Source of the DNA: Deltaproteobacteria bacterium | GTDB taxonomy: Bacteria; Desulfobacterota; Binatia; UBA9968 | Direction: 5' to 3' | NCBI GenBank assembly: GCA_016874755.1 | Contig: VGTH01000005.1 | Span: forward strand, 51,547-115,546 | DNA length: 64,000 nt | Shown: positions 25,798 through 54,984 of the stretch, in pieces | Layout: each line of letters begins with the position of its first letter | How positions within the stretch are numbered: the first letter of the stretch is position 1 | The notes under the pieces: model-generated | Seen by the model: the letters and a program-made list of their open reading frames with translations, nothing else | The model's database searches: none | What the model was told of the DNA's origin: nothing | Position numbers and translations under genes: made by a program

Positions 25798-25850
25798 AAG
25801 AAAAAGATACATAGTCACCACGAAGGACACGAAGATCACGAAGTTCGGAT

Positions 25851-25885
25851 GTAGGGGCGAAATATTTTTCGCCCTTCCTTCGTGC
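25851..25885 (+). terminator. intrinsic terminator carrying the conserved GTAGGGGCG hairpin
   Basis: gtaggggcgaaatatttttcgccc then ttccttcg, preceded by the shared word acgaagatcacgaagttcggatgt. Confidence 0.55.
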
Positions 25886-25921
25886 GCTGCGTGGTGAAAT
25901 GGGATTTATTAGTTCTCTCGC

Positions 25922-26920
25922 ATGAACACCCTCCTTCGCAGAAGCCTGGGCGCTATCCCGGTTATCATCGCCATCTCGTTTTTAATTTTTCTTTTGATGC
26001 ACATCGCGCCGGGTGACCCGGTGACATTGATGTTGGGCGACAACGCCACTCCTGAGGACGTCGAGAAGCTGCGCCGGGAGTTGGGTTTTGACAAACCCAT
26101 CCTGGCTCAATATTGGGATTTTCTCTCACAAGCGGTGCGCGGCGATTTCGGCCGGTCGCTCAAGTTCGGCGAGCCGGTGATGAAACTGGTTGCCGAGCGG
26201 TTGCCGGCGACCTTGGAGCTAGCGTTTGCGAGCCTTTTTGTTGCAATTTTGATCTCGGTGCCAGTTGGCGTCTACTCGGCTATCAAACACAATTCGCTGC
26301 TCGATCACGCCGGCATGAGCGTCGCCTTGGTGGGCGTTTCCCTGCCTAATTTTTGGCTTGGCATCATGCTGATCTACTTTCTCGGCGGGCAGTTGAATCT
26401 ATTGCCCGTGGCGGGGCGCATCGAATACGGCATCGAGATTAAATCGATCACCGGTCTCTATCTTTTTGACAGCCTCATAACCGGCAACTTCACTGCGTTT
26501 TGGAGCGTGGCCAAGCACCTTTTGATGCCGGCCGTTACCCTGGGCTCAGCCTTGGCAGCGATTGTGACGCGCATTTCTCGTTCCAGCGTGTTGGAGGTCA
26601 TGCGCCAGGACTATGTCACAACCGCGCGCGCCAAGGGGCTGAGTGAAAAGGCGGTCATCTGGCGCCATATCCTGCGCAACGCGCTGATTACCATCGTGAC
26701 GATTCTCGGCTTGCAGCTTGGCGCCTTGCTCAGTGGCTCGGTGGTCACCGAAACGGTTTTTTCCTATCCGGGCATCGGCGATCTTTTGATCCAGTCGATC
26801 TCGGCGCGCGACTATAAGCTTACGCAGATTCTGATACTGATGTTCGCGATTACTTACTTCGTGGTCAATTTACTGGTGGACTTTCTCTATAGCTGGATTG
26901 ATCCGAGGATCAAGTTTTAA
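25922..26920 (+). CDS. ABC transporter permease (DppB/OppB-like)
   Basis: 332 aa, six transmembrane segments, binding-protein-dependent transport signature region. Confidence 0.9.
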   Translation: MNTLLRRSLGAIPVIIAISFLIFLLMHIAPGDPVTLMLGDNATPEDVEKLRRELGFDKPILAQYWDFLSQAVRGDFGRSLKFGEPVMKLVAERLPATLELAFASLFVAILISVPVGVYSAIKHNSLLDHAGMSVALVGVSLPNFWLGIMLIYFLGGQLNLLPVAGRIEYGIEIKSITGLYLFDSLITGNFTAFWSVAKHLLMPAVTLGSALAAIVTRISRSSVLEVMRQDYVTTARAKGLSEKAVIWRHILRNALITIVTILGLQLGALLSGSVVTETVFSYPGIGDLLIQSISARDYKLTQILILMFAITYFVVNLLVDFLYSWIDPRIKF

Positions 26921-27759
26921 TGCTATCGTTTCGCCACTTAAAAATTTGGGTCGGCGGGGCTATCCTTGCGCTGTTGGTGGTTTGTGGCGTTGCCGCGCCG
27001 CTGTTGGCGCCGCGCGATCCGCAGATGCAGACCCTGGAAGACCGGTTGCGGCCGCCGCGCTGGACGAAAAATGGCTTGCCGGCGTACTTGCTTGGCACCG
27101 ATAACCTCGGCCGCGATATGTTGAGTCGGATTATTTACGGCTCGCGTATTTCGCTCATGGTCGGCGCCGCAACCGTGATCTTCGCCGGTGTTGTCGGCTG
27201 CACGCTGGGCGCCGTCGCTGGTTACTTTGGCAAGACGGCCGACGAAATCGTCAGCAAGGTATCCGAAATCTTTCTGGCTTTTCCATTCTTGTTGATTGCC
27301 ATCGCGATCATGGCCTTTCTCGGCCAAGGGGTGGGTAATCTCATCATGGCGTTGATGCTCAGCCGTTGGGTACAGTATTGCCGTGTGGTGCGCGGCGAGG
27401 TGCTGTCTTTGAAAGAGCGTGACTTTGTCACCGCTGCAAAAGCGCTGGGCGGCCAGGATTTCTATGTCCTGTTTCGTCACGTGGTGCCCAATACGCTGGC
27501 AAGCGTGACGGTCATTGCGACCTTCGGCATGGCGATCGTGATCATCACCGAAGCGAGCCTGAGCTTTTTGGGTCTGGGCGTGCCGGTGCATATTCCCACG
27601 TGGGGTTCGATGCTTGCCGAGGGCAGGAGCTACATCAACCGGGCCCCGTGGCTGACTATCTTCCCTGGGCTGGCAATTTTTATTACGGTATTTGGTATCA
27701 ATCTGCTGGGCGACGGGCTCAGGGATATTTTCGATCCGAAGCTGAGACGGCAACGTTAG
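26920..27759 (+). CDS. ABC transporter permease (DppC/OppC-like)
   Basis: 279 aa polytopic protein. Start overlaps the upstream stop (ATGCTA/TAATG). Confidence 0.9.
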   Translation: MLSFRHLKIWVGGAILALLVVCGVAAPLLAPRDPQMQTLEDRLRPPRWTKNGLPAYLLGTDNLGRDMLSRIIYGSRISLMVGAATVIFAGVVGCTLGAVAGYFGKTADEIVSKVSEIFLAFPFLLIAIAIMAFLGQGVGNLIMALMLSRWVQYCRVVRGEVLSLKERDFVTAAKALGGQDFYVLFRHVVPNTLASVTVIATFGMAIVIITEASLSFLGLGVPVHIPTWGSMLAEGRSYINRAPWLTIFPGLAIFITVFGINLLGDGLRDIFDPKLRRQR

Positions 27760-27789
27760 TGGAAAATGGAAATTATTCGGAGGGTGATC

Positions 27790-29322
27790 ATGAGTCGTGA
27801 TTTTAGCCGGCGATCATTTTTGAAAGCGGGCGCAACGGCGGCAGCCGCAATCGCGGCGTGGCCGCGCTATGTTTTGGATGCCAGCGCGGCGTCGCGCGAC
27901 CGGGTGACGATTTTTCACTCGAGCGTGGCCGACTCGATCCATCCCTACAATCATAGCTCCAGCCCGATCTACGGCAACTGGCAGCATGTCATCGAGCCGC
28001 TGCTTGAATACAGCGTTGACCGAAAGGACTTTGTCGGCGTGCTCGTCGAGTCTTGGCAGTTCCAGGGCAACAAGTGGGTCTTCAAGCTGCGCAAGGGTGT
28101 GAAGTTTCACAATGGCGCGACCTTCACAGCGAAGGACGTGGTCTTCTCCGTGGAAAAAATGCGCGATGAAAAGGGCGGCAGCCTGCAGGCGCCCAATTTC
28201 AAAGACGTCGCCGAGATTCAAACCCCGGACGATTACACCGTGGTTTTCGTTACCAAGCAGCCCATGGCGGTATTTTTAGACCGGCTCGATAACCGCTTCG
28301 TGTTGAGCAAAGAAGCCGGCGATAAATTTGGCGATAAGATTTATGAAAACCTTATCGGCACCGGCCCGTATAAATTTGTCAGCTACCAGCGCGGCGGCAA
28401 CCTGGTGTTCACCCGTAACGACGACTACTGGGGCGGACGAGCCAACATCAAAGAAGTCGTCTTCAAGAAAGTAACCGAAGACGCGGCGCGCTTGGCAGCG
28501 CTGGAGTCGGGCCAAGCGGACTTCATCAACAATGTGCCGGACCATGAAGTGGCGCGCTTGAAAAAACATCCGCGCGTGCGCATCGACCAGGTCGAAGGAC
28601 AGCGGATGTTTTTCTTTGCCTTCAACATGGCGTTTAAGCCATGGGACAACAAACTGGTGCGCCAGGCGGCCAACTATAGCGTCGATGCGCCGGCGATTAT
28701 TCGAAACATCTTCGACGGTATCGGCTATCCGTGCAACGGGCCGGTGGGCGCCAACGTTTTCGGTGCCGACCCGAAACATAAGCGCTATCCGTACGATCCC
28801 AAGAAGGCCAAAGAGTTGCTGGCTCAAGCGGGCTTTCCTAACGGCTGCGATATCCAACTTTACTACTCCGCGGGGCGCTATCCCAAAGACCGCGAAATCT
28901 GCCAAGTGGTGGCCGCGCAAATGGTCAAGAGCGGTTTTCGCGTCGAGCTGATCTCGCAGGAATGGGCGCTATTTTGGGACAAGCAGGGAGTCAACGGTGG
29001 CCGGCTGCCTTTTTACTACATTGGTCGCGGCGGCTTGACCGACGCCGATACGCTGTATGATCAATACTTCCGCACCGGGACAACCAAGAGGACCAACTAC
29101 AGCAACCCTGAGTACGACAAGCTCATCGAAGAGCAGCAGCGCACCTCCGATTCAAAAAAGCGCACGCAGATCCTGCAGCAGGCTGGCAAACATATCATGG
29201 ACGAAGCCTTGTTCATCCCGCTGTTTAACCTCGCGGACATCTACGGTGTCGCGAGGAATTTGGAGTGGAAGAAGCGCCCGGATGAAAAGATCAAGGCCTG
29301 GGACATGAAGATCAAGGCATAG
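27790..29322 (+). CDS. ABC transporter substrate-binding protein family 5, second paralog
   Basis: MSRDFSRRSFLKAGATAAAAIAAW Tat leader, preceded by ggaggg. Confidence 0.88.
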   Translation: MSRDFSRRSFLKAGATAAAAIAAWPRYVLDASAASRDRVTIFHSSVADSIHPYNHSSSPIYGNWQHVIEPLLEYSVDRKDFVGVLVESWQFQGNKWVFKLRKGVKFHNGATFTAKDVVFSVEKMRDEKGGSLQAPNFKDVAEIQTPDDYTVVFVTKQPMAVFLDRLDNRFVLSKEAGDKFGDKIYENLIGTGPYKFVSYQRGGNLVFTRNDDYWGGRANIKEVVFKKVTEDAARLAALESGQADFINNVPDHEVARLKKHPRVRIDQVEGQRMFFFAFNMAFKPWDNKLVRQAANYSVDAPAIIRNIFDGIGYPCNGPVGANVFGADPKHKRYPYDPKKAKELLAQAGFPNGCDIQLYYSAGRYPKDREICQVVAAQMVKSGFRVELISQEWALFWDKQGVNGGRLPFYYIGRGGLTDADTLYDQYFRTGTTKRTNYSNPEYDKLIEEQQRTSDSKKRTQILQQAGKHIMDEALFIPLFNLADIYGVARNLEWKKRPDEKIKAWDMKIKA

Positions 29323-29354
29323 AGAGTCCGAGCCCGCGTTGTTGACGGTATGAA

Positions 29355-29549
29355 GGCGATCGAGGTGGAACTCTGGAGGAGCGAAGGCAACAGGGCATCG
29401 CGTAAACGCCGCGATGTAGGGGCGACCGGCGGTCGCCCTCTTTTGCGACCTAGCGATGCAAGAATCGAAGATGAATTCCAAGCAGCGGCAAACGAAACGA
29501 AAGTTTCGCGCTGATGCCTTCGCTCCTCCAGAGTTCCACCTCGATCGCC
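29355..29549. repeat. MITE-like element: perfect 35-bp terminal inverted repeats around a 125-bp core
   Basis: ggcgatcgaggtggaactctggaggagcgaaggca (29355-29389) is the exact reverse complement of 29515-29549. The core contains a GTAGGGGCG terminator hairpin (29416-29448). Confidence 0.75.
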
Positions 29550-29647
29550 ACAGTATCGTTGGTTTCCCAAGAACCTGAATAGCCCGGGCTAAGTCTGGGG
29601 GCGGAGGGTGCGCAACGACAGCAGCAGATTTCCCAATAGGAGCATTG

Positions 29648-31177
29648 ATGAGTTCAAGAGGTAACGGAATCAATCGCAGAGATTTTCTCAAGAACAGCGC
29701 CATCGCGGGTCTTGGTGCACTCGCCAGTTCAGGATTGGCCAAGTTCAGCTATGCGGCCTCGAAGGACCGCCTCACGGCGCTGAGCAGCATCGGTCTCGAC
29801 ACCCTGCACCCCTATGCGCACAGCTCGAGCCCACAATACGGCATCTGGCACAACATGCTCGAGCCGTTGGTAGAAGTCGACTACGCCAAGAAAGATTACT
29901 TCGGCGTCCTCGCCGAGTCATGGCAATTTCAGGGCAAGAAGTGGGTGATCAAGCTGCGCAAGGGCGTCCGCTTTCACGATACCAGCCCGTTCACCGCTAA
30001 AGACGTCGTCTACTCGATCAACCGATTGAAAAACGACAAAGAGAGCATGCAAAAAGATAACTTTCGCGACTTTGTCGAGGTCCAGGCGGCGGATGATCAT
30101 ACCGTGATCATAACCACTGAGCAGCCGGTGGCGGTGATGATGGACCGCTTGCAGAACCGCTTCATCCTCTCGAAATCCGGCACCGAAGCGCAAGGTAGTC
30201 AGGGCGAGTTAAAGCCCGTCGGTACCGGCCCGTACAAGTTTCAAAGCTGGCAGCGCGACGGCAATCTCGTGATGGTGCGCAACGACAGCTACTGGGGAAC
30301 GAAGCCGTCGGTCCGAGAGATCGTCGTGCGCCGTGTGAAAGAGGACTCCGCTCGGGTCGCGGGCTTGCTCGCCGGGCAAGGCGATGTGACCAACAATGTG
30401 CCGGTGGAAGAGCTGTCGCGCTTCGATAACCATCCGCGCATTCGCGCGGAGAAAGTCGAAGGCGTGCGCATGTATTTTCTCGCCATGAACGTGACGCACA
30501 AGCCGTTTGATAACAAATTAGTCCGCCAGGCGATCAACTACGCGGTCGATCCGTCGGCGATCATCAAACATATTTACGAAGGCAACGGCTACGTGATGAA
30601 CGGCCCGCTCGGCTCCAACGTCATCGGCTTCGATCCCAAGATCAAGCGCTATCCAGTAGACATCAATAAAGGCAAGGAGCTGCTCACCAAAGCCGGCTAT
30701 CCCAACGGCTTGGACATAAAGCTTTATTTTTCACCCGATCGCTATCCCAAAGCCAAAGAGGTCTGCCAGGTGATCGCCGACCAATTAGCCAAGATCGGCA
30801 TCAAAACCGAATTGGTCTCGCAGGAGTTCGTCATCTTCTGGGGCAAAGAAGGCGTCAACGGCGGCAAGCTCGGCTTTTACTACGTCGGCCGCCCGGCGGC
30901 GGACGCCGATACGGTTTACGATCAGTACTATCGCTCCGGCGTCAGCCCGCGCATTCAATACAAGAATCCGGAGTTCGACAAGCTGATCGATGAAGAGCAA
31001 AGGATCGGCGACCCGAAAAAGCGCATCGCACTACTGCAACAGGCAGGGCGTATTCTCATGGAAGACGTGCCGTTCTGCCCGCTCTACACATTGGCAGAAA
31101 TCTACGGCGTCGCGCGCAACGTGAAATGGAAAGCGCGGCCGGATGAAAAGCTGCTTTACGCAGATATGAAGATTTGA
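29648..31177 (+). CDS. ABC transporter substrate-binding protein family 5, third paralog
   Basis: MSSRGNGINRRDFLKNSAIAGLGALASSG Tat leader, preceded by RBS aggag. Confidence 0.88.
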   Translation: MSSRGNGINRRDFLKNSAIAGLGALASSGLAKFSYAASKDRLTALSSIGLDTLHPYAHSSSPQYGIWHNMLEPLVEVDYAKKDYFGVLAESWQFQGKKWVIKLRKGVRFHDTSPFTAKDVVYSINRLKNDKESMQKDNFRDFVEVQAADDHTVIITTEQPVAVMMDRLQNRFILSKSGTEAQGSQGELKPVGTGPYKFQSWQRDGNLVMVRNDSYWGTKPSVREIVVRRVKEDSARVAGLLAGQGDVTNNVPVEELSRFDNHPRIRAEKVEGVRMYFLAMNVTHKPFDNKLVRQAINYAVDPSAIIKHIYEGNGYVMNGPLGSNVIGFDPKIKRYPVDINKGKELLTKAGYPNGLDIKLYFSPDRYPKAKEVCQVIADQLAKIGIKTELVSQEFVIFWGKEGVNGGKLGFYYVGRPAADADTVYDQYYRSGVSPRIQYKNPEFDKLIDEEQRIGDPKKRIALLQQAGRILMEDVPFCPLYTLAEIYGVARNVKWKARPDEKLLYADMKI

Positions 31178-31179
31178 TC

Positions 31180-31207
31180 GTAGTGACAGGTCGCGACCTG
31201 TCACTAC
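31180..31207. promoter_or_regulatory. perfect 28-nt palindrome immediately after the third SBP gene
   Basis: gtagtgacaggtc gc gacctgtcactac with no U-tract. Could be an operator or a bidirectional hairpin. Confidence 0.5.
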
Positions 31208-31326
31208 ACGCGCTCGTAGGATGGGTTGAGCGTCAGCGATACCCATCACCCAACCGCGTCTCGAAAGAGAAGCATGACATTGGGGTCAACACGGCGTAGG
31301 GGCGCAATTCATTGCGCCCGCCCGAC

Positions 31327-32211
31327 TCAGTTCGTCACCGCCGTGCCCGTCAGCATCTGAATAATTCGCTCCAAGTCGTCCGTCGAGTAGTATTCGATTT
31401 CAATCTTGCCTTTTTTCGATCTTGCCTTCGGCAGCAAGCGCACCTTGGTGCCGAGGCGGCGCTGAATATTTTCAACTAAAGATCGTAAATCCGGATCGAG
31501 CTGACCCGGTTCGCGCCGGCGCCGCCGGCCGGTTTTCAAGTGGCGCACGAGCTTTTCCGTTTCGCGCGTCGACAAGCCTTTACTGATAACTTCCCGCGCA
31601 GCGGAAACGATCAACAAGTCTGCCTGCAGGCCAAGTAGCGCCCGCGCTTGGCCGGCGGGAAGATTACCGGCGGCTACTTCATGTTGTACTTCGCTCGGCA
31701 GTGAGAGCAACCGAATCGAGTTGGCGATCGCCGGACGGCTCTTGCCAACTTTGTCGGCCATCTCTTCGTTGCTCCAGCTAAACTCTTGCTGCAGTCGTCG
31801 GTAGCCGTTGGCTTCCTCGATGGGGTTCAAGTCTTCGCGCTGAAGATTTTCGACTAGCGCCAGCTGCAGCGCCTCTTGATCGCTAGCTTCACGCACGACC
31901 ACCGGAACCTCGGTGAGGCCGGCCTTCATGGCGGCGCGCCAGCGGCGCTCACCGGCGATCAGCTCGTAGTCGCCGTCCTTGGGCCGGACGACAAGCGGCT
32001 GAATGATCCCCTGATTGCGGATCGAGGCCGCGAGCTCGTCGATTTTCGCCTCATCGAACGTGCGGCGTGGCTGAAACGGGCTCGGCGTGATGCGCTCAAC
32101 GCCGACTTCCGTGGTGGCGGATTCCCCGTGAGGTTCAACCAGCGGCTCACTAGCGCTCGGGATCAGCGCGCTCAGACCTCTACCAAGTCCCATTTTTTTC
32201 GGCACTGACAT
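31327..32211 (-). CDS. parB: chromosome partitioning protein ParB (Spo0J)
   Basis: [11 protein letters not shown] ParB box, [24 protein letters not shown]. Confidence 0.92.
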
Positions 32212-32983
32212 TTTCTTCTTCAGCTCCACGATTAATTAGTTCTCTGGCTAAATCTTGATAATCCTGCGCTCCGGTTGACGTGGGATCGTACAAGCAAATG
32301 GGTTTGCCGTAACTTGGACTTTCGCTCAGACGCACATTGCGGCGGATGATGGTTTGAAAAATCTTGTCGGGAAAATGGCTGCGAATCTCCTCGACGACTT
32401 GATGTGAGAGGCGGTTGCGGCTGTCGAACATAGTGATGACGATGCCCTCGAGCGTTAGAGCCGGATTCAAATTTTTCTGCACCAGGCTGACGGTTTCTAA
32501 AATCGCAGTGAGTCCCTCAAGGGCGTAGTATTCACTTTGGATCGGCACGATAAGAGAGTTGGCGGCTGTCAACGCATTGAGCGTAATCAGTCCAAGTGAC
32601 GGTGGACAATCAAGCAGCACGTAGTCATAGTGATCGCGCACAGTGGTCAGCGCGTCTTTGAGGCGAAACTCGCGCCGCTCAACGCTTACCAGTTCGATCT
32701 CAGCGCCGACGAGGTTTTTACTCGCTGGAATCATTAGTAGCTGAGGAATCTCGGTTTGGCAGAGGACTTCGCCGATGAAGCGCGTGCCCGAAAGCACTTC
32801 ATACAGGCTCCCTTGCAAGGCGGAACGGTCGATGCCGAGGCCCGTGGTGCTGTTGCCTTGGGGATCGATGTCGACCAATAGAGTTCGTTTGCCTTCAGTC
32901 GCCAGCGCCGCGGCGAGATTAATCGAAGTCGTGGTCTTGCCCACGCCCCCCTTCTGATTCGCGATCGCCAGAACGACACTCAT
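32180..32983 (-). CDS. parA: chromosome partitioning ATPase ParA (Soj)
   Basis: [28 protein letters not shown] deviant Walker A. Confidence 0.95.
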
Positions 32984-33073
32984 ATATTTCTCTTTAAAAT
33001 CAATATGTTATGATTTTATTGCCGACGTGACCAAAGTACCACGAAGAGTTAAGAAAGGAAAGAAAAATCTATC

Positions 33074-33089
33074 CGTTTCACGTGAAACA
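33074..33089. promoter_or_regulatory. parS centromere site
   Basis: cGTTTCACGTGAAACa matches the TGTTTCACGTGAAACA consensus across the full 14-bp palindromic core. Confidence 0.85.
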
Positions 33090-33107
33090 GATCAGAAAAG
33101 GCGAAGA

Positions 33108-34988
33108 TTAAGCGCTCTTGCGCCGGGTCAAATGCACTGATAGCAGCGATATCGCCGCGGGTGTAACGCCCGAAATACGTGAGGCTTGGCCCAGTGAGCG
33201 TGGCCGGATGCGGGTGAGTTTCTCGCACACCTCTCGCGATAGCCCGCTGATCTGCGAGTAGTCGAAATCTTCTGGAACTCGCACATGCTCCATTTTTTGG
33301 AATCGCTGCACGATTTCCACTTGGCGGTCGACGTAGCCTTCGTATTTTGTGCTGAGCTCGACCTGAGCATCGGCGTCAGCTGAGAAGCTCGGCATGTCCG
33401 GAGCCAGGCGGCGGAGCTGATTCAGGCTAACTTCGGGTCGGCGCAGTAGCTGCGCCAGTGAGCAATGGTTCTTCAGTGGCGCTGTGCCGAGCTCCGTAAG
33501 CAGCGCATTGACTTCGCTGGTCGGAGTCACCTGCCGACTTTGCAGGAATGCATTGAGCTGGTCGATCGCATTTTTCTTATCTACGACCCGGATATTTCGT
33601 TTGCTATTCGCAAGGCCGATCCGATGACCTATTTCAGTGAGTCGCAAGTCGGCATTGTCCTCGCGCAACAATAGGCGATACTCGGCTCGTGAAGTAAACA
33701 TTCTATAGGGTTCGCTATCCGTGCCCTTGGTCACCAAGTCGTCGACTAGCACGCCGAGGTAAGCTTGGTCGCGGGAGAAGACGATGGGCTCTTGGCCGCG
33801 CAGGCTCAAGACAGCGTTTATCGCTGCAATCAATCCCTGAGCCGCTGCTTCCTCGTAGCCGGTGGTTCCGTTGATCTGTCCCGCATGGTAAAGCCCGCGC
33901 ACCAGCTTGGTTTCGAGCGACGGATGGAGCTGGGTCGGCTCGACGTAGTCGTATTCGATGGCGTAGCCCGGACGCATGATCTCGGCGTTTTCGAGTCCTT
34001 CGATCGAATGAACCATCTCGAGTTGCACATCTAGGGGTAGACTTGTCGACAAACCATTGGGATATACCTCGACAGTGTCGAGTCCCTCCGGCTCTAAGAA
34101 TATCTGGTGGCGGCTCTTATCGGCGAAGCGATGGATCTTGTCTTCGATCGACGGGCAGTAGCGCGGCCCACGGCTCTTGATGATTCCGGAATACATGGGC
34201 GAGCGATGCAGTGCGGCCCGTATCACTTCGTGGGTGCGTTCATTGGTATAAGTTATGTGGCAAGGCACCTGGCGCTGGGTGACACCGTTGCTCAAGAAAG
34301 AAAATGGCATCGGCGGATCGTCGCCGGGTTGGACTTGGAGATTTGAATAATCGATAGTGCGCGCATCGAGGCGTGGGCAGGTGCCGGTCTTGAGACGACC
34401 TACTTTGAAGCCGAGCGCAACCAGTGACTCGCTCAAACCTTGCACAGCGAAGTCGCCGGCACGACCAGCGGAATAGTTAGTCTCCCCGATATGGATCAGC
34501 CCTTTAAGAAAAGTACCAGTGGTGAGGATGACGCGTCGGCCGTAGAACTTCTCACCGATCTGAGTTTCGACGCCCTTGACTTCGCCGTTCTCTACTAGCA
34601 GTTTCTCTGCACTACCTTGGCGCAGGGTTAGTCCAGGGCAGTTTTCCAAAACACGCTTCATGCGCAACCTGTAAAGAGCCTTATCAGCCTGCGCTCTTGA
34701 GGCACGGACCGCTGGGCCTTTGCGGGTATTGAGCATGCGAAACTGAATACCGGTTTCGTCAATTGCCAAACCCATCTCGCCGCCCAGGGCGTCAATCTCT
34801 TTCACCAGGTGGCCTTTTCCAATGCCACCGATGGCTGGGTTGCAGGACATCTGGCCAATGTGGTCCAGATTCAAAGTAAGCATCAGCGCGTCGCAGCCCA
34901 TGCGAGACACAGCCAAGCAGGCTTCGATGCCGGCATGGCCGGCGCCGACGACTATCACCTCGAAAATCTTGTTCTGTCTCGTGCTCAT
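33108..34988 (-). CDS. mnmG: tRNA uridine 5-carboxymethylaminomethyl modification enzyme MnmG (GidA)
   Basis: [21 protein letters not shown] motif, 626 aa, MnmG C-terminal domain. Confidence 0.96.
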
Positions 34989-35004
34989 TGTTTCACGTGA
35001 AACG
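34989..35004. promoter_or_regulatory. second parS site
   Basis: TGTTTCACGTGAAACg, 15 of 16 to consensus, overlapping the mnmG start codon region. Confidence 0.85.
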
Positions 35005-35064
35005 GGACCCGGTGTGGGTGCAATTAATGCATTTTCACCAGGAAAGTTTCTATATTTATTTTAG

Positions 35065-36441
35065 TTACTTACCTATACAAAAGCTGCTGAACACATGGTC
35101 CAAAACAGCCTCATTGTCGATCACGCCGACGATCTCTTCCAAGCCCTGGCGTGCTTCGTTGAGATCAACGGCAATGAATTCGGGCGCATGGCCGAGTGAC
35201 AATGTCGCTGCGGCCCGGAGCAACGCTTGCTCGCTGCGAACGAGTGCGGCCTTGTGGCGTAGATTGGTTACGATCACCGGCGGTTCGCCAGCCGTCGAAA
35301 AGATTAGATCATGGAGAGTAAGCTTTAGGTTGTCTAGTCCGTCACCCGTCTTTGCCGATACCACTGTGACCTGGTCGATGTCGAACTCATGCGCGAGACT
35401 TTCAGGACTTATGATCTGCGGCATGTCCGCTTTGTTGATGACCGCCAATATTTTTTTCCCATTGCAGGATTGGATCAGCCCGATGTCATCGCCGGTCAGC
35501 GTAGTCGACCCGTCCAGCACGAGCATCACGGCGTCAGCTTGCTGCATATGGCGGCGCGACAGGTTCACTCCGATCTGCTCGACTTGGTCATCGGTTTCGC
35601 GTATTCCCGCAGTATCCCAAAGGACCACGCGCACGCCGGCTAGATTTAGCGATTCCTCGACAACGTCGCGGGTGGTACCCGGCACCGGGGTTACGATAAC
35701 CCGCTCCTCACCGAGCAATGCGTTCAAGAGGCTTGACTTACCGACGTTGGGGCGGCCGCAAAGGCACACGCGCACGCCTTCGCGCAGCAGGCGTCCATAT
35801 TCATAACTATTTGATATTATTACTATTTTTTCAAGTATGCCGGATAGTTTCTGGGCCAATTCTGAGGCCTGCAAGAGCTCAATATCCTCGTCCGGAAAAT
35901 CGATGGCGGCTTCCACTTGAGCGAGAATGTCGAGCAGCTCCTCGCGCAGTTCGTTAACCCATTTCGACAAGCCGCCGCTCATCTGCTCAAGGGCGACCGC
36001 GGCGCTTTTGTCGGTGCGTGCTTGAATCAACTCCAGCACCGCTTCGGCCTGGGCCAAGTCCATTCGACCGTTGAGAAAGCCACGCTTGGTGAATTCGCCC
36101 GGCTCGGCTTGTCGCGCCCCATGAGCCAAGACTAGCTGTAAGACCTGGCGAACAACGAATGCGCCGCCGTGGCAATGAATTTCAACGACGTCTTCACCGG
36201 TGTAGCTGTGCGGCTTGCGCATCACCGTGAGCAGCACCTGGTCCAACACTTTTTCCGAACGTGGATCGCGGATCTTGCCATAATAAAGTTTGTGCGAGTC
36301 GAGCGCGGCACCGTTGCGTTCTTTGCGCACGAAGATATCGCGAGCGATGCGCTCGGCATCGGGCCCGCTGATACGCACGATCGCCACACCGCCCTCACCC
36401 GGCGGCGTCGCGATGGCGGCTATCGTGTCTTCCTTATACAT
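35065..36441 (-). CDS. mnmE: tRNA modification GTPase MnmE (TrmE)
   Basis: MYKEDTIAAIATPPGEGGVAIVRISG, G-domain GRPNVGKSSLLNAL, C-terminal CIGK. Confidence 0.96.
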   Translation of the reverse strand: MYKEDTIAAIATPPGEGGVAIVRISGPDAERIARDIFVRKERNGAALDSHKLYYGKIRDPRSEKVLDQVLLTVMRKPHSYTGEDVVEIHCHGGAFVVRQVLQLVLAHGARQAEPGEFTKRGFLNGRMDLAQAEAVLELIQARTDKSAAVALEQMSGGLSKWVNELREELLDILAQVEAAIDFPDEDIELLQASELAQKLSGILEKIVIISNSYEYGRLLREGVRVCLCGRPNVGKSSLLNALLGEERVIVTPVPGTTRDVVEESLNLAGVRVVLWDTAGIRETDDQVEQIGVNLSRRHMQQADAVMLVLDGSTTLTGDDIGLIQSCNGKKILAVINKADMPQIISPESLAHEFDIDQVTVVSAKTGDGLDNLKLTLHDLIFSTAGEPPVIVTNLRHKAALVRSEQALLRAAATLSLGHAPEFIAVDLNEARQGLEEIVGVIDNEAVLDHVFSSFCIGK

Positions 36442-36605: not shown

Positions 36606-36618
36606 GCTGAGGAGGAAC

Positions 36619-38256
36619 TTATCGGACGGTTAGGCTCGCGCCTTTCGTCACGCCACCATAGGTAGCGCTGATCGTCGCCGAAATTCGTTTGCTACCTCGG
36701 GTTGTCGACACCGTGAAAGTCGCGGTTCGCGTTCCAGCCAGGACCGTAACAGTTGTCGGAACGCTGGCACGAGTCGGGCGGCTACTGGATAAATTGATGA
36801 CCGCTCCATCTGCTGGCGCGTTGCTGGTGAGCGTCACTGTGCCAATGGATGTCGCACCGCCACTCACACTAGTTGGATTCAAACTCAAAGATTGCAGTGC
36901 CACAGGATTCACGGTTAAGATCGTCGACTTCGTGACGCCCGCGTAAGTCGCCGTGATGTTGCCAATCGTCGTTGCGCTCACCGCGCTCGTGTTTACCGCG
37001 AAGTTTGCAGTCGTCGCGCTTGCTAATACTGTTACAGAAGCTGGCACAGTCACCGCTGGATTGGCGCTGCTCAAGCTTACGACAGCGCCGCCGTTTGGTG
37101 CTGCCGTCGTAAGCGAAACGGTACCGGTCGTTGATTGTCCTCCGGTGATGGTTCTTGGAGCAGCACTTACAGATGACAGCGAAGCCATTGTCGATGTCGT
37201 TGGATTGTAGCCGAGTTGAATGACTTCGAAATCGCTCGCCGTCAGACTGCGAAACGCTGGATTCAAAATGTTGTTGTTCCAGCGTGTGTCGTAGGTGCCG
37301 GTGACGAACATGTCCGAGCCGTTGTCGGCGACGATCGAGCCGTATTTCTGCATGGCGCGGAAGATTTTTTGGACGTTGGGATCGCTGGTGCGCTGCGCCA
37401 CATCGACGCTGGGTTTCAAGCGCAGCCGCGCACCCATCGGCAGCGCACCGGCGGTTGAACCGGCACGGTGTGACGCCGGGTAAACGTAGCCGTTGGTCGC
37501 GCGCACCGTAACCCGGAAGGCGTGCTTTATTCCAGCAACGTTGGGATCGTAGACTTCATCGTAGCGCACCAGACCTGGAAGAATCGCCAATCCTGCGGCA
37601 TCCGCTGACGTCCAGGTATCGGGGCGGCGATCGTTGGTGTTCATGTCGAAGAATGCGCCAGAGCCACCAAACCACTTCCCCTGCGCTGAATCGTAGTAAA
37701 CGTTGTAGAGCTCATAGAGATGGTTGCTATCTTTGTCGACGATCAGCAAGTGCCGGTCCTGCGAGTTGCGCCGATCAATGTTGCCCGGCTCGCCGCCTTC
37801 AATCCATTTCCCTTCGGTGATCGCCTGCGGCGGAATCGGATAAAAAGGCACGCCTTTGCCGGTGTTATAATCAACACCGTCGCTTTCATCCCAATATTGA
37901 AACTGCACCGGCTTACGGTCGGCATCGGTGAGGTTTGTCACGACGGCATAGGGGATACCGTAGATACCGTATTGTGTGCCATCGTTGCCGCCGAAGTCAG
38001 GATGAAGCCGGCGCGTGCCGCCATTGTTGATGAAAGAAATGTAGTTGGTGGAATTCTGATCGACGGGCCAGCTGCTGATATCGAGATTCCACCAATTGTC
38101 GGCGGGGAAAAGCGGCAACGGCTGCGGCAGCGCGCCACCGCGCACCGCGTCCATGGCCAACGCTGGTGCCGAAGCGACGAAGAACGCCATCAGTGTCACC
38201 ACGGCGATGACAGCGGTTAACCGTCTAGAGAAAAGACGAAGCCGAGTTCGCAGCAT
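36619..38256 (-). CDS. secreted protein with an uncharacterised N-terminal domain and 2-3 C-terminal Ig-like tandem repeats
   Basis: Signal peptide. C-terminal half contains reiterated modules of about 85 aa (L.SL.L.P.SV.GG.S.GTV.L...AP.GGAV..LSS..P....VP..VTV.AG...A.F.V.T...I.A.Y.GVTK..LTV). Confidence 0.6.
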   Translation of the reverse strand: MLRTRLRLFSRRLTAVIAVVTLMAFFVASAPALAMDAVRGGALPQPLPLFPADNWWNLDISSWPVDQNSTNYISFINNGGTRRLHPDFGGNDGTQYGIYGIPYAVVTNLTDADRKPVQFQYWDESDGVDYNTGKGVPFYPIPPQAITEGKWIEGGEPGNIDRRNSQDRHLLIVDKDSNHLYELYNVYYDSAQGKWFGGSGAFFDMNTNDRRPDTWTSADAAGLAILPGLVRYDEVYDPNVAGIKHAFRVTVRATNGYVYPASHRAGSTAGALPMGARLRLKPSVDVAQRTSDPNVQKIFRAMQKYGSIVADNGSDMFVTGTYDTRWNNNILNPAFRSLTASDFEVIQLGYNPTTSTMASLSSVSAAPRTITGGQSTTGTVSLTTAAPNGGAVVSLSSANPAVTVPASVTVLASATTANFAVNTSAVSATTIGNITATYAGVTKSTILTVNPVALQSLSLNPTSVSGGATSIGTVTLTSNAPADGAVINLSSSRPTRASVPTTVTVLAGTRTATFTVSTTRGSKRISATISATYGGVTKGASLTVR

Positions 38257-38480
38257 GCTTCGCTCCTTTTTTATGGAATTCCGCCGAAACAGCGCAAGTC
38301 ATGTGCCAGGAAGACGTGACTTTGCAATGCTTACGAAACGATGGACAGAAACCGCCGACGAGCGACAAGGTTTCTGCGCAGAACGATGCCACAACAGGTT
38401 TACGCAAACGGAAATGTGCACGAAGACCTGCAACAGCGTAGGAGAAAGCTAATTTGGGTGGAGAGATAAATAGACAGAAA

Positions 38481-38516
38481 CGAAAAAACCAAGGGCGTGA
38501 TGAATCACGCCCCTAC
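38481..38516 (-). terminator. intrinsic terminator with GTAGGGGCG hairpin after the MR/MLE-family gene
   Basis: Minus strand reads gtaggggcgtgattcatcacgccc ttggttttttcg. Confidence 0.7.
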
Positions 38517-38565
38517 AAAATCCGAACTTTGCCCTCTTGCGCCTCTGCGCGAGATAATCCGAAAA

Positions 38566-39726
38566 TCAGTTGTGGCTCGCCTGCAGCACCGGCTGCCGGA
38601 TCGTCAAGTCTTCGTTCCCAGCGAAAGCAAAACGCTTCAGCGCCACTGGATCGAGCTCTATACCCAAGCCGGGTTTATCCGGCGGAATCAGAGATCCCTT
38701 TTCGAATCGCACCGGCTCTTTCAACAGCTCTTCGCGTAGCGGGTTGTAGGTGTAATCGAGCTCCATGACGATGCACTCTTGCACAGCCGCGGACAGATGC
38801 ACGCTCGCTGCTAGCGCGACCGCATCGCCCCAGGTGTGAAAGGAAACTTGCACGTTGTTCTTTGCTGCCAGGGCGGCAACTTTGCGAATTTCAGTGACAC
38901 CGCCGACGCGCGCGACATCCGGCTGTAAGAAATCCACCGCGCCGCGGGCGATGAAATTTTCGAAGGCGTAGCGCATCTGCAAGTTCTCACCGACGGCGAT
39001 GGGCACTTTGCCTTCGCGACGCAAGAGCGCGTGCCCTTCGACGTCCTCAACAAACAGCGGTTCCTCTAACCAGAAGGCGCCGCTGTCGGCGAACGCCGCT
39101 GCCGCTTTGAGGCCGACGTCAATAGAATAGCCCTGGTTAGCGTCGGTCATGACGACAAAGTCTTTGCCTAGTTCCTGGCGCACGGCGCGGACGATGCGGA
39201 TGTCTTGATCGAGATCGAAGCCGACTTTGATTTTGACGCCGTGAAAGCCCTGCTCGGCGAAATCGTAGGCGCGCTTGACGACTTTGGAAACTTCTTCTGG
39301 ATAGAGCGCCGTCGCATACACCGGAACTTTGTCGCGGACTTTTCCGCCGAGGAGTTTGTAGAGCGGCTGGCCCTTCACTTTGCCGAGAATATCCCACAGC
39401 GCGATGTCGACACCGCTCAGCGCGATGACGCCCACACCGCGTGTGCCAAACTCTTTGTGCCCACCGCGATAGTAAGCTTTGTCCCAGACTGCATCGATAT
39501 TCGTCGGATCCATGCCGACCAGCATCGGTTTCAAAACCTTCGAAATGACCGCGTCGATCATCTCGCCGTTGCCAGAGGCGGAGCCGATGCCGCTGACGCC
39601 ATCGTCGGTGTCAACCTGAACGAGATTGGTCGCACGCATGGTGCGCACACCGGAACGGCTAAACACCTGGCCGGAGGCCGGCAGCTCAGTGCGCAAACGG
39701 ATGGTTTTGATGCCTGTGATCTGCAT
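38566..39726 (-). CDS. mandelate racemase/muconate lactonizing enzyme family protein (enolase superfamily)
   Basis: MQITGIKTIRLR N-terminal capping domain and the KxK / D / E / D metal-ligand pattern (KIKVGFDLDQD). Confidence 0.88.
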   Translation of the reverse strand: MQITGIKTIRLRTELPASGQVFSRSGVRTMRATNLVQVDTDDGVSGIGSASGNGEMIDAVISKVLKPMLVGMDPTNIDAVWDKAYYRGGHKEFGTRGVGVIALSGVDIALWDILGKVKGQPLYKLLGGKVRDKVPVYATALYPEEVSKVVKRAYDFAEQGFHGVKIKVGFDLDQDIRIVRAVRQELGKDFVVMTDANQGYSIDVGLKAAAAFADSGAFWLEEPLFVEDVEGHALLRREGKVPIAVGENLQMRYAFENFIARGAVDFLQPDVARVGGVTEIRKVAALAAKNNVQVSFHTWGDAVALAASVHLSAAVQECIVMELDYTYNPLREELLKEPVRFEKGSLIPPDKPGLGIELDPVALKRFAFAGNEDLTIRQPVLQASHN

Positions 39727-44167: not shown

Positions 44168-44188
44168 CGAATCAACGCAGGAGCAAAC

Positions 44189-45172: not shown

Positions 45173-45212
45173 GTCGCAAGTTGAAAAGCCATCGAAGCCA
45201 AGCAGGGAAAGC

Positions 45213-45349
45213 ATGAGCTACAACGGATATACCGTCATCGACGCTCACCACATGCTAAACCGGTAGCCGCTATGGCCCGTCGCCCCCGCGTATTTGCTCC
45301 AGGATTGCTCTATCACGTCATCGTCCGCGGCAATCAGCGGGGAACATAG
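45213..45349 (+). mobile_element. remnants: amidohydrolase-2 N-terminal fragment followed by an IS200/RAYT-like transposase N-terminal fragment
   Basis: 45213-45263 MSYNGYTVIDAHHMLNR* (compare MARNGYKIFDADTHV). 45272-45349 MARRPRVFAPGLLYHVIVRGNQRGT*, the hallmark start of IS200-like/REP-associated tyrosine transposases. Confidence 0.45.
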
Positions 45350-45546
45350 GGAAAGCTCCTTTCGCTTTCAGCACGCCGATAATCAACAAAGGCCAATCAC
45401 GGGCTCACACGCCGTCAAGGAAAATCGGAAATCATAAACGAATGCAGCGGCTTACCATCCGTAGCGCAAGTGTGAGCATTTGTGCTATAAGGCAAGAGCT
45501 TGAATTGCATGTGTTTTCTAATGCTTGGGCGAAAGGAAGGTTACAC

Positions 45547-47802: not shown

Positions 47803-48006
47803 GCGTGCACCATTTGATCGGAACCTGCTGATTAGGTCCTAATTGTCATTCTGAGCCGACGGCGAAGAATCTGCTGCATGCAATTGCACGAAAAGAAGAT
47901 CCTTCGCTGACGGTCAGGATGACAAAGAGGGAATTTCCGCATTGCAACACAATCATTTGGAGACAAGCACGGGCCTGAACCAAGTGCAATTCTTTAACGA
48001 ACACCC

Positions 48007-48978: not shown

Positions 48979-49132
48979 CCGTGGTGCACATGAATATTTT
49001 GTTGGCTGTCGCGTCTTTGTCTTAGGAGGACAAAACGGAGGTAGCTGTTGGTGGGGCTTCTGATGTTGCCATGAAATATGGCAAAGTGTGCTCTATCGAT
49101 AAAGGAATTTCATTATAGAAAGAAGTTAAGGG

Positions 49133-49342
49133 ATGACCTCGATAAAAGGTGTCGTTTTAGCGATCGCTTTATTACTTTTGGTTTCTGCCAACGGCCAAAC
49201 TGGGGAACCCGCGCCGTGGTACAAGTGGAAGAGCAGGGTCAATAACCAAATCGTCTGCTCGCAAACCGCCCCCGGCGACAACTGGGAGCGAGAAAGCGGT
49301 CCGTATACGGATTCGCATTGCGATACGCTGGTGAATAAATAG
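49133..49342 (+). CDS. small secreted two-cysteine protein (69 aa)
   Basis: Signal peptide MTSIKGVVLAIALLLLVSANG, a mature part rich in W/K/N with 2 Cys, and an AT-rich upstream region. Confidence 0.35.
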   Translation: MTSIKGVVLAIALLLLVSANGQTGEPAPWYKWKSRVNNQIVCSQTAPGDNWERESGPYTDSHCDTLVNK

Positions 49343-49371
49343 ACGTGTCGGTCTGCTTGCGGCTGTGAAAG

Positions 49372-50259: not shown

Positions 50260-50367
50260 AGCTGCGGTAAAGAATGCGGCAAGGGGCGTGCATTAGCAAT
50301 GGGTTGATGTCCGAAAACGGCGAGTTTGCCCTTGCACAGGTGCGGCCAAAGTTGCTTTCATCATGCT

Positions 50368-52014: not shown

Positions 52015-52351
52015 GCTGCCGTTGGCAGCGCGCGGCACTGAGTTTCAGCAGAAAGTCTGGCGCCGCTTGCGCGAGATCCCCTTCGGAAAGACCAAGAGCT
52101 ACTTGGAAATCGCCAAGGCAGTGGGCGCGCCGCAGGCGAGCCGCGCGGTGGGCGCGGCCTGTGGCAAGAATCCGATTTCGATCATCGTTCCCTGCCACCG
52201 TGTCGTCGCGTCCAACGGCAATCTCACTGGGTTTGCCGGCGGGCTGGATATCAAAGCCAGACTGCTCGCATTGGAGGGTGTTAGGGACAGCTTGCGAGTT
52301 GTCCCTACAAATTCACAAGATACTTCTTTGCGAGCCCCTCGACAAACTTGA
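51806..52351 (+). CDS. ogt: methylated-DNA--protein-cysteine methyltransferase
   Basis: IPFGKTKSYLEIA...IIVPCHRVV active-site PCHR motif. RBS aggagg 6 nt before ATG 51806. Confidence 0.9.
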   Translation: MTLSYKEMISPVGRLKLVASENALLAVLWEREAPDRVKLDVLTAAQHHPILQSAKRQLAEYFAGQRTRFELPLAARGTEFQQKVWRRLREIPFGKTKSYLEIAKAVGAPQASRAVGAACGKNPISIIVPCHRVVASNGNLTGFAGGLDIKARLLALEGVRDSLRVVPTNSQDTSLRAPRQT

Positions 52352-53201: not shown

Positions 53202-53217
53202 GATGGACTCCGCTGTG

Positions 53218-54165
53218 CTACGGCAAGAAAGTCAAATCGATCACTTGCTGCGGTGTAACGTTCTTGGCCTTGGGATTTTCTTTGGCTAACTCGTCTATCG
53301 CGAGCTGGATGCCTTTCAATGTAGGTTTGCCATCGTCGGGGAAAGCGCGCGCGCGGTAATTGTAATCGGCTTCCGCTAGGGCGCGATCGTCGGTGCGAAT
53401 CGCTTTCATGGTTTCCTTGATGGCGTCGTTGCGGTTGCTTTTGTAGAGGCGCACTGACTCCACATAGGCACGCAGGAAACGGCGCACCGCGTCGGGATGA
53501 CTCTTCAACAAATCACCGCGAGCGACGACGCCGGTCATTTGGTAGTCGATCTCTTTTTCGGCGAAGTCGAGCATGGGAAATAAACCGGATTTCTTGGCGA
53601 CATGGCTCACGCCCGAGATCAGCGATGTGCCGTCGATGCTGCCGGCTTGCAGTGCATTGATGCGGCCGGCCGAGCCGCCGCCTTGAATGAACTTAACGTC
53701 GCTCTTCGGATTTAAGCCGAACTGTTCCAACGCCATGCGCGTCGCTAGCTCGTCGGTGCTGCCGTAGCGGGTAATGCCCAAGGTCCGGCCTTTCAGTTGC
53801 GCCGGTGAGGTGATGTGCGGCCGGGTAAAAAACGTGTAAGGAAAACGATTGTTGACACCGCCGATGATTTTGACGTCGGCGCCTTCAACAAAGCCGTGGA
53901 GAAACACCGTGGCGCTGGTGGTGACGATGTCGAGGCTTTTCGCCAACAACGCCTGCATGGCGACCGGGCCGCCGGTGATCAAAATGACTTCCAAATCGAT
54001 GTTGTGTTTCTTGAGAACACCCGCTTCTTTGGCGAGGGCAAAGGCGACTTTCTCGGTGCTGGTGGCCGCGGTGGAGGCGAGACGAATCTTGATGGCTTGG
54101 GTCTGGGCCGCCACCGATTGCGGCAGCGAAAACGCGAGACAGGCAACGATAAGGGCAAAAAATTT
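53218..54165 (-). CDS. NMT1-like periplasmic substrate-binding protein (start at GTG giving MKFFALIVACLAF...)
   Basis: Signal peptide plus LKKHNIDLEVILITGGPVAMQALLA. gaaaggag RBS 9 nt before the GTG. Confidence 0.78.
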   Translation of the reverse strand, partial: KFFALIVACLAFSLPQSVAAQTQAIKIRLASTAATSTEKVAFALAKEAGVLKKHNIDLEVILITGGPVAMQALLAKSLDIVTTSATVFLHGFVEGADVKIIGGVNNRFPYTFFTRPHITSPAQLKGRTLGITRYGSTDELATRMALEQFGLNPKSDVKFIQGGGSAGRINALQAGSIDGTSLISGVSHVAKKSGLFPMLDFAEKEIDYQMTGVVARGDLLKSHPDAVRRFLRAYVESVRLYKSNRNDAIKETMKAIRTDDRALAEADYNYRARAFPDDGKPTLKGIQLAIDELAKENPKAKNVTPQQVIDLTFLP

Positions 54166-54275
54166 CACTTCGATGAAACTCCTTTCGATTGAGTCAGATA
54201 TGCCAAATGAACCGCCAAACGCAAGCAAGATCGACATTGCTTTGGACGCAGCAATTGCAGTATCGTGCGGCCACT

Positions 54276-54956
54276 ATGGAAACCAAAATCTTCACATGGC
54301 TAGGGCGCGAGTTTGTCGAAATCGTCGGCGAGGCAGGCTTAGGCGGGTCGACAGAGCAAGCGACCGCGGAGCTTTTCGCCAAGTTCGACAAATCTTTGCA
54401 AGGGCTCGGTCTGTCGCTCGACAACACTGTGCGCATCCGGGTCTTTGGCCGCGATCGCCAAGCGCGCACCGACGCGACGCTGGCGCGCTCGAAAGTGCTC
54501 AGCCGCCAACGGCGCGCCGCGAGCTCCAGTTTTATTTCTCAGCCATGGTTCGATTCCGCCGGTTCCGGCGGATTGGAGTTGCTCGCGCTGCGGCCATTGA
54601 ACGCCAGCTCGGGACGCAATCCGATCGACTTCGCGCTGGCGCGGAATTATTTGTGCTATCTGGAATACGACTCTGTGTTGTTTTTCTCCGGCTTTACGTC
54701 GGAGGCCGCAACGCTGGAGCGGCAGGTCAAAGACGTGCTCGGCACGTTGGACGACGCCTTCGCGCGCGCCAAGACCGATTGGAGTAAAGTCGCTAAGCTT
54801 TCAATGCTGGTCCAGCGCGGCCATTCCATCGACACGGTCAAAGCTGTGCTAGCCGGCGCCGGGCCATTGAGCGTGCCAGCGCTGGAATTCACTTTTGTCG
54901 ACGGCTTTGCCGGCGAGAAATATCTGATTGAAATCGAAGCGACGGCGTTGAAATGA
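54276..54956 (+). CDS. tandem RidA/YjgF-like (endoribonuclease L-PSP fold) protein
   Basis: Two halves each ending in RidA-like blocks (TVRIRVFGRD... and KYLIEIEATA). Confidence 0.55.
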   Translation: METKIFTWLGREFVEIVGEAGLGGSTEQATAELFAKFDKSLQGLGLSLDNTVRIRVFGRDRQARTDATLARSKVLSRQRRAASSSFISQPWFDSAGSGGLELLALRPLNASSGRNPIDFALARNYLCYLEYDSVLFFSGFTSEAATLERQVKDVLGTLDDAFARAKTDWSKVAKLSMLVQRGHSIDTVKAVLAGAGPLSVPALEFTFVDGFAGEKYLIEIEATALK

Positions 54957-54984
54957 AAAGGGGCGCGATAAATCGCGCCCCTAC
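54956..54984 (-). terminator. intrinsic terminator with GTAGGGGCG hairpin for the minus-strand amidohydrolase gene
   Basis: Minus strand gtaggggcgcgatttatcgcgcccctttt. Confidence 0.65.

Follow-up and report, generated by a model that had tools for sequence, protein, structure and literature searches.

A Putative GTAG-REP Family with Terminator-Like Features Behind Genes of an Uncultured Deltaproteobacterium

Short palindromes that begin with the same 9-mer, GTAGGGGCG, lie behind genes at five sites in a 64,000-nucleotide stretch of a metagenome-assembled genome (MAG) of a Deltaproteobacteria bacterium (assembly GCA_016874755.1, contig VGTH01000005.1, forward-strand positions 51,547 to 115,546). 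This whole stretch is called the window, and coordinates given without a locus name are positions within it. Judged from their sequence, the hairpins are very probably members of a family of repetitive extragenic palindromes (REPs) that carry a GTAG tag. They share one GTAG-headed architecture, the same unit recurs in at least 120 stretches elsewhere, and genes for REP-associated tyrosine transposases (RAYTs) flank it there. The original prediction, which was read from the window alone, had proposed a dispersed REP-like family in place of independently evolved terminators, and these observations bear it out. The family is a new representative of the well-described GTAG-REP kind; REP architecture as such has already been published. 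We also consider likely the whole explanation, in which a lineage-specific set of static singletons has come into terminator-like use. This result accounts for a set of conserved intergenic hairpins in this genome.

Sequence and Structure of the Hairpins

The exact 9-mer is found five times in the 64-kb window, beginning at 25851, 29416 and 31296 on the plus strand and at 38516 and 54984 on the minus strand, against 0.26 occurrences expected; none of 100 shuffles attained five. With one mismatch permitted, the 15 matches are at the level of background (12.6), and therefore the exact copies carry the signal. A perfect palindrome follows every copy. Both the coordinates and the sequences first reported for these five hairpins are correct, and the longer ranges reported on the minus strand include the T-rich tails. 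The pattern GGGGCG-N10-CGCCC adds a sixth copy, which is headed by GCAG instead of GTAG. The five copies (A1 to A5) and the variant (A6v) are as follows.

25851..25874, plus strand: REP copy A1, GTAG GGGCGAAA tatt TTTCGCCC, then ttccttcg; -18.2 kcal/mol; 54 nt past the stop of a class-III aminotransferase gene (24511-25797) and 47 nt ahead of an ATP-binding cassette (ABC) permease gene
29416..29438, plus strand: REP copy A2, GTAG GGGCGACC ggc GGTCGCCC, then tcttttgc; -23.1 kcal/mol; 94 nt past the stop of the SBP_bac_5 gene 27766-29322
31296..31319, plus strand: REP copy A3, GTAG GGGCGCAAT tc ATTGCGCCC, without a T tail; in the convergent spacer between an SBP_bac_5 gene (29645-31177) and parB (31327-32229, minus strand)
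38493..38516, minus strand: REP copy A4, GTAG GGGCGTGAT tc ATCACGCCC, then ttggtttttt; -18.4 kcal/mol; 50 nt past the stop of an MR_MLE gene (38566-39726, minus strand)
54961..54984, minus strand: REP copy A5, GTAG GGGCGCGAT tt ATCGCGCCC, then cttttcat; -20.5 kcal/mol; 127 nt past the stop of an amidohydrolase gene (55111-56562, minus strand) and 4 nt from the stop of a convergent RidA-like open reading frame (ORF)
7833..7856, minus strand: variant copy A6v, GCAG GGGCGACC ggtt GGTCGCCC, then tttcttat; downstream of a class II aldolase gene (7907-8617, minus strand)

The unit is 23-24 nt long and consists of an unpaired GTAG, a perfect stem of 8-9 bp and a loop of 2-4 nt. GTAG heads 5/5 of the copies found through the 9-mer, and only the sixth has GCAG. 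When the six copies are aligned, the five basal pairs of the stem (GGGCG/CGCCC) are invariant, and the four apical pairs vary on both sides (A-T, C-G, G-C, T-A) with complementarity kept. In this alignment, 98.1% of the stem cells are paired, and none of 500 shuffles matched the observed pairing or covariation. RNA folds of the hairpins reach -18 to -23 kcal/mol, with z-scores from -2.9 to -5.2.

Counted irrespective of stem sequence, the window has 8 sites at which GTAG precedes a perfect stem of 8 bp or more; first-order Markov simulations give 0.08, and natural control DNA of 597 kb has 2. Perfect hairpins with such a stem number 20 in all, and eight or nine of them carry the tag. The density of the GGGCG type, 5-6 copies per 64 kb, extrapolates to approximately 80-90 per Mb; the 10 kb beyond the window hold none. 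No Rfam family matched anywhere in the window, and a literature search for the GTAGGGGCG string returned unrelated primer matches only.

The Same Unit in Other Genomes and in Viral Contigs

A collection with one genome per species was scanned with GTAGGGGCGNNATTYATNNCGCCC, a 24-nt pattern derived from A3-A5. The pattern fixes about 19.5 of its 24 positions (19 bases and one two-fold Y), and about two chance matches are expected in 596 Gb. The scan returned at least 157 matches in at least 120 stretches from more than 20 phyla. Hosts among the matches listed include Chloroflexota, Acidobacteriota, Armatimonadota, Gemmatimonadota, delta-, beta- and gamma-proteobacteria, Firmicutes, Actinobacteria, Bacteroidota, Omnitrophota, Patescibacteria and Thermotogae, as well as an isolate Erwinia genome. 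Five contigs among the matches listed (L028, L085, L098, L112 and L121) come from one MAG, Gallionella sp. DP16D_bin.1, which suggests that some Gallionella genomes hold the REP unit in very high copy number.

The four free stem positions are complementary in 144 of the 157 matches listed, where chance would give 1/16. An inverted partner lies at most 150 nt downstream in 58/157. The listed matches are mostly outside long ORFs, and convergent and unidirectional spacers exceed divergent ones. The listed loci also contain 79 additional GTAGGGGC-headed hairpins with other apical stems, among them the GGGCGACC...GGTCGCCC type seen in A2 and A6v. Across genomes, 88% of the listed matches have no T tail; the tail is therefore flank and lies outside the element. 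The pattern is also present in 34 stretches of predicted viral contigs (L228-L261, IMG/VR), with inverted pairs in L229 and L236, for example. These contigs may be phage genomes proper or the host flanks of prophages.

This distribution bears on a different origin, in which the hairpins evolved independently as terminators, or serve as binding sites for a host protein or as uptake signals like the Neisseria DNA-uptake sequences, with the 9-mer kept by convergent selection. The terminator-like position and shape would fit, as would a constant part limited to one side and the stem base. However, the same 24-nt unit extends over more than 20 phyla and into viral contigs, and neither convergence nor a species-specific signal predicts inverted pairs, RAYT neighbours or absence from close relatives. 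Such an origin is extremely improbable.

RAYT Genes Beside the Unit

The same repeat beside a RAYT gene, the arrangement that defines a REPtron, is found elsewhere (L052, L114 and L078, with a related unit in L262) and not in the window. In L052, a Chloroflexia MAG, a minus-strand RAYT gene with HUH (MPNHVHAL) and Y (WQRNYHEHIVRN) motifs lies between two GTAGGGGCGTGATTTATCGCGCCC pairs, one at 5209-5267 and the other at 5803-5881. Against PF01797, whose cut-off is 23, a 109-aa fragment of its product reaches 27 bits; against NF047646, "REP-associated tyrosine transposase", it reaches 54.6 bits. In L114, a Myxococcales MAG, a RAYT N-terminus of 48% identity lies about 170 nt past an inverted REP pair. 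In L078, a Bacteroidales MAG, an HUH fragment adjoins or runs into the REP. The REP-flanked RAYT subfamily has at least 7,972 members. One RAYT of 49% identity, P0311 (L262), has 5-7 copies of GTAGGGGCCTTATtctATAACGCCC on both sides in eight assemblies, and these REPs are GTAGGGGC-headed. The REP-linked RAYTs were found only by inspecting the locus in which two REP pairs lie about 540 nt apart; neither tblastn nor a home-built Y1 hidden Markov model (HMM), which came from the wrong subfamily, retrieved a Y1 transposase from the 120 listed REP loci or from the viral ones.

Spurious ORFs run through the REPs at 6240-6500 of L114 and 4750-5120 of L078 and yield peptides such as GAINRAPT, GRDKSRPY and VGARFIAP. 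REP-derived ORFs of this sort are a probable source of many "hypothetical protein" clusters in catalogues of metagenomes.

The Transposase Remnant at 45272

The original prediction had also recognized the remnant of a RAYT in the window and offered the hairpins as possible substrates of its enzyme. The first part stands and the second does not. The fragment is as follows.

45272..45349 (codons to 45346), plus strand: Y1 (RAYT-like) transposase remnant of 25 codons, MARRPRVFAPGLLYHVIVRGNQRGT and a stop

The remnant shares 87-100% of its residues with 53 database proteins, many of which are named RayT by JGI, and is 91-100% identical to the N-termini of a Y1-transposase subfamily. Several of these relatives match Pfam PF01797, and one scores 41.6 bits on NF047646. 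The N-terminus is thus genuinely RAYT-like, which is what speaks for it as the source of an enzyme acting on the hairpins. However, the fragment in the window ends after 25 codons and lacks both the HUH and the Y motif, and past its stop no frame shows further similarity. At 25 aa, the remnant was too short to give a match in HMM and PDB searches. Its relatives form the MARRPRVFAPGLLYHVIVRGNQR subfamily, for which four independent loci (L216-L223, L224, L225 and L226-L227) were compared; they contain 0 GTAG hairpins. Instead, in L226, 32-nt terminal inverted repeats (TIRs) with GGGGTCAGGC bracket the gene, and in L216, GGGGTCAGGC precedes it; no TIR with GGGGTCAGGC is found near the window remnant. 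The enzymes beside GTAGGGGCG REPs belong to another RAYT subfamily, of which none is encoded in the window. On this comparison, the remnant comes from a subfamily flanked by TIRs, and it does not represent the enzyme cognate to the GTAG hairpins. That the hairpins are substrates of its parent transposase is very improbable. A further probe, in which an invented continuation follows the 25 residues of the window, served only for the retrieval of real proteins; it retrieved the MARPLRIEFPGA... Y1 subfamily, whose loci (L125-L131) have no GTAG hairpins and are uninformative here.

Just upstream of the remnant, at 45213-45266 on the plus strand, lies the short ORF MSYNGYTVIDAHHMLNR, which ends in a stop. 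Its VIDAHH string recalls the N-terminus of a metal-dependent amidohydrolase. Two decayed gene stumps may thus lie together in the spacer 45173-45441. Annotators of this genome should read its short ORFs and "RayT" fragments as repeat debris.

Nested Y1 elements were seen among the relatives of the remnant, in L216 at 2025-3070 (also in L217-L221) and in L224 at 2501-3839. A gene of the MARRPRVFAPG... subfamily is broken after about codon 50 by a complete Y1_Tnp gene of 277 or 267 aa. The inserted genes are bracketed by their own 18-nt inverted repeats (TAGGGTCAGGTCTTGCAA; TTCCTCGGGGTCGGACCA). This Y1-in-Y1 insertion occupies a nearly identical place in two unrelated contigs.

Gene Context and Terminator-Like Features

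Four of the six GGGCG-type copies lie in unidirectional spacers and two in convergent ones, and none is found in the ten divergent spacers. The distance from the stop codon to the copy is 50-127 nt. GTAG is on the sense strand in 4/4 of the informative, unidirectional spacers (p = 0.06). Copies on both strands track gene direction, and GC skew is positive along the whole window without a switch, the cumulative skew climbing monotonically with no turning point. Therefore, orientation follows transcription, and the replication strand was ruled out as its cause on the same grounds. The cluster of parB, parA, gidA (mnmG) and mnmE at 31327-36441 on the minus strand is usually origin-proximal, yet no GC-skew turning point accompanies it.

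At least five T are present in the 8 nt behind the stem in 4/5 copies, or 5/6 when A6v is counted. T-rich tails are thus more frequent in the window than among the matches listed elsewhere (4/5 against 18/155, or 12%; Fisher p = 0.0013). A4 is the top-ranked terminator-like site of the window in a consensus terminator scan. A stable GC-rich hairpin, a U tract, the sense orientation and a position 3' of a gene occur together, with A3 alone lacking the tract. Folds, T tails, orientation and the rank of A4 agree with the terminator-like character for which the hairpins were first singled out. Because of the T tails (4/5 against 12%) and the sense orientation, we lean towards use of the window hairpins as Rho-independent terminators or 3'-end stabilisers. 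They would then mark the probable operon ends of the aminotransferase, peptide ABC transporter, MR_MLE and amidohydrolase genes. The contrast in T tails, 80% here and 12% among the matches listed elsewhere, is a possible case of exaptation of a selfish repeat as a terminator.

The terminator look could also be a by-product of genuine REP copies that were inserted into T-rich 3' spacers or beside terminators, or that were tolerated only at neutral sites. According to PMC3733652, REPs in general are found mostly near 3' ends, in spacers between unidirectional or convergent genes. A3 has no T tail, and 88% of the listed matches are tail-less, so that the tail belongs to the flank. However, the excess of T tails (p = 0.0013) and the uniform sense orientation are what selection for termination predicts, and the relatives of this genome have no recognisable terminator at the A4 site. 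We regard the by-product account as unlikely.

Lineage Specificity

The nearest relatives, L133 and L140, retain the gene order MR_MLE, hyp545, mnmE, gidA, parA, parB. Their proteins are 59-80% identical to those of the window, and about 70-76% for the spacer-flanking MR_MLE and hyp545. Both relatives lack the approximately 80 nt that bear AAGTTCGGAT and A4, and no comparable terminator was found in their A4 spacer. Because these syntenic relatives are without the element, A4 appears lineage-specific: by this alignment it is an insertion in the lineage of the window or a loss in the relatives, and not an ancestral terminator. With no recognisable terminator at this position in the relatives, A4 was therefore not inserted at a terminator already present. 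In 80 metagenome loci (597 kb) retrieved with ParB as anchor, only 2 GTAG hairpins occur. Strain variants (L001-L004) are 100% identical in the A4 region and hence give no information. The window sequence is also present in freshwater-lake metagenomes.

A sigma-54-type promoter motif, TGGCAC-N5-TTGC (cTGGCACatgacTTGCg), lies in the A4 spacer at 38294-38308 on the minus strand, upstream of the gene for a 545-aa hypothetical protein (36619-38256). This promoter-like motif is retained in L133 and L140, and the remaining spacer is not.

Proposed Origin and Present State of the Copies

In other bacteria, REP units are single-stranded DNA substrates of RAYT/TnpA_REP HUH-tyrosine enzymes that need GTAG for cleavage. 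This is established for other REPs and would hold here as well, so that the window copies would have been laid down by such a RAYT. Their arrival or expansion would postdate the divergence from relatives whose proteins are about 75% identical, as the comparison at A4 shows for that copy. The copies are probably static and immobile now, because they are singletons without a nearby RAYT. In transcripts, they would form hairpins of -18 to -23 kcal/mol that terminate transcription independently of Rho or stabilise 3' ends.

Several points weigh against this explanation. The window holds five or six copies only, all singletons, whereas the mobile unit usual in the literature is an inverted pair. 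No cognate RAYT is encoded in the window or the 10 kb beyond it, and the RAYT gene of L052 is split by one frameshift, which may mark a pseudogene or be a sequencing error. The taxonomic spread of GTAGGGGCGNNATTYATNNCGCCC is that of the at least 120 stretches matched by a restrictive pattern, a sample and not a census. The gene maps are crude ORF maps with Pfam support, and the orientation statistics draw on four informative spacers only. Moreover, the missing T tail of A3 does not fit terminator use.

Other GTAG Hairpins and Flanking Words in the Window

Besides the sixth, GCAG-headed copy, four GTAG hairpins with stems unlike the GGGCG type come in addition to the five hairpins first described.

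7872..7900, plus strand: second-family GTAG hairpin, imperfect, GTAGATGGGTTAgcgaagcgTAACCCAAC
15962..15991, minus strand: second-family GTAG hairpin, GTAG GTTGGGTTA gcgcagcg TAACCCAAC (GTAGGTTGGGTTA...TAACCCAAC)
31180..31207, no strand assigned: third-family, doubly tagged perfect palindrome GTAGTGACAGGTCgcGACCTGTCACTAC, GTAGTGACAGGTC gc GACCTGTCACTAC; -20.3 kcal/mol
52285..52308, minus strand: fourth-family GTAG hairpin with one stem mismatch, GTAG GGACAACT cgca AGCTGTCC (GTAGGGACAACT...AGCTGTCC)

The palindrome at 31180-31207 begins 3 nt past the stop of gene 29645-31177. The hairpin at 15962-15991 resembles the Coxiella burnetii REP in Table 1 of PMC2817692. The inverted REP doublet with a short spacer that defines a REPIN is not formed by the GGGCG-type copies of the window, which are all singletons, and the only neighbouring pairs involve other families (7833-7856 with 7872-7900, and 31180-31207 with 31296-31319). 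At 7833-7900, two hairpins of different families stand tail-to-tail 15 nt apart in a heterodimer arrangement; the minus-strand one is of the GCAG GGGCGACC type and its plus-strand partner of the GTAG ATGGGTTA type.

The longer word said to precede two of the hairpins, with a third fragment behind a hydrolase gene, is real: AAGTTCGGAT matches exactly at 25841-25850, 38520-38529 (minus strand) and 22905-22914. Its surroundings are as follows.

25829..25850, plus strand: 5' flanking word ACGAAGATCACGAAGTTCGGAT, immediately ahead of A1
22893..22914, plus strand: solo flanking word ACGAAGAGCAAGAAGTTCGGAT, without a hairpin, behind the alpha/beta-hydrolase gene 22017-22868
38520..38529, minus strand: AAGTTCGGAT word, 3 nt upstream of A4

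The words at 22893-22914 and 25829-25850 match in 20/22 bases. As a component of the element, AAGTTCGGAT was rejected, since in no other locus does it accompany the REP.

A perfect 35-bp inverted repeat, GGCGATCGAGGTGGAACTCTGGAGGAGCGAAGGCA, with arms at 29355-29389 and 29515-29549, surrounds a 125-nt segment that holds A2. The resulting 206-nt structure has a predicted fold of -126.6 kcal/mol (z = -12.5). It is best described as a putative MITE-like element (miniature inverted-repeat transposable element) or an inverted duplication, and its arm sequence does not occur in any fetched locus.

Comparison with Known Systems

The text of Di Nocera et al. 2013 (PMC3733652) describes the GTAG-REP superfamily as having an unpaired GTAG, stems of 6-13 bp (mostly 6-9) and loops of 2-4 nt that are often TY. 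Its sub-families differ by compensatory stem changes, and the repeats lie in unidirectional or convergent spacers near 3' ends. In this description, the window copies share the GTAG, the perfect GC-rich stem and the short loop, and the loops tc and tt fit the common TY loop. Compensatory sub-families, spacers at 3' ends and several families per genome are also shared. Closest in shape is REPSm/SMAG of Stenotrophomonas maltophilia, which the text of PMC8266576 presents with GTAG, an 8-bp perfect stem and a 3-nt loop. The GGGCG...CGCCC stem is not mentioned in the text of either paper. The window family differs in that its copies here are without exception singletons, that it comes from an uncultured deltaproteobacterial MAG, and that the unit is spread over many phyla.

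The relatives of the transposase remnant recall a second system. A TIR-type arrangement with a GGGGWSAS motif, the TIRYT or TIRtron, is described in the text of PMC3733652, and these relatives share inverted repeats with GGGGTCAG, which fits that motif. The copy in the window differs as a 25-codon stump without TIRs or catalytic motifs. With intrinsic terminators, the hairpins share the GC-rich hairpin, a U-rich tract in 4/5 copies and a place on the sense strand downstream of a gene. They differ from terminators in a sequence common to the copies and to unrelated bacteria, and in that one copy has no U tract.

The REPIN-RAYT system of Pseudomonas fluorescens SBW25 and the REPs of E. coli, with their bacterial interspersed mosaic elements (BIMEs) and TnpA_REP, share the short palindrome with a GT(A/G)G head (PMC3337134, PMC3479197, PMC2817692). 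Nearly all RAYT-associated REPs tabulated by Nunvar et al. begin with GTAGG (PMC2817692). According to the texts of PMC8266576 and PMC3479197, RAYTs bind folded single-stranded REPs and cut at a nearby CT. For REPs that are perfect palindromes, the text of PMC8266576 reports that GTAG is essential for cleavage and that GCAG is barely cut. The likeness to REPINs and BIMEs is clearest in other genomes, in the inverted pairs (58/157 listed) and in the REPtrons L052, L114 and L262; the window, in contrast, has neither pairs nor a RAYT.

REPIN-RAYT residents are described as vertically inherited, whereas the GGGCG unit is patchy, being absent in relatives and present in distant phyla and viral contigs. 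A tentative and rather doubtful scenario is that one REP unit (GTAG GGGCG-YR-ATTYAT-YR-CGCCC) and its RAYT subfamily spread horizontally over more than 20 phyla, possibly carried by phages, and that orphaned singletons in lineages such as this one were recruited as the standard terminator at operon ends. If true, such spread would contradict strictly vertical inheritance. The patchy cross-phylum distribution of one REP unit, viral contigs included, is the most interesting residue of this analysis. A nearly identical unit in distant phyla and viral contigs that is absent from close relatives offers tractable data for weighing RAYT transfer against convergence on one recognition hairpin.

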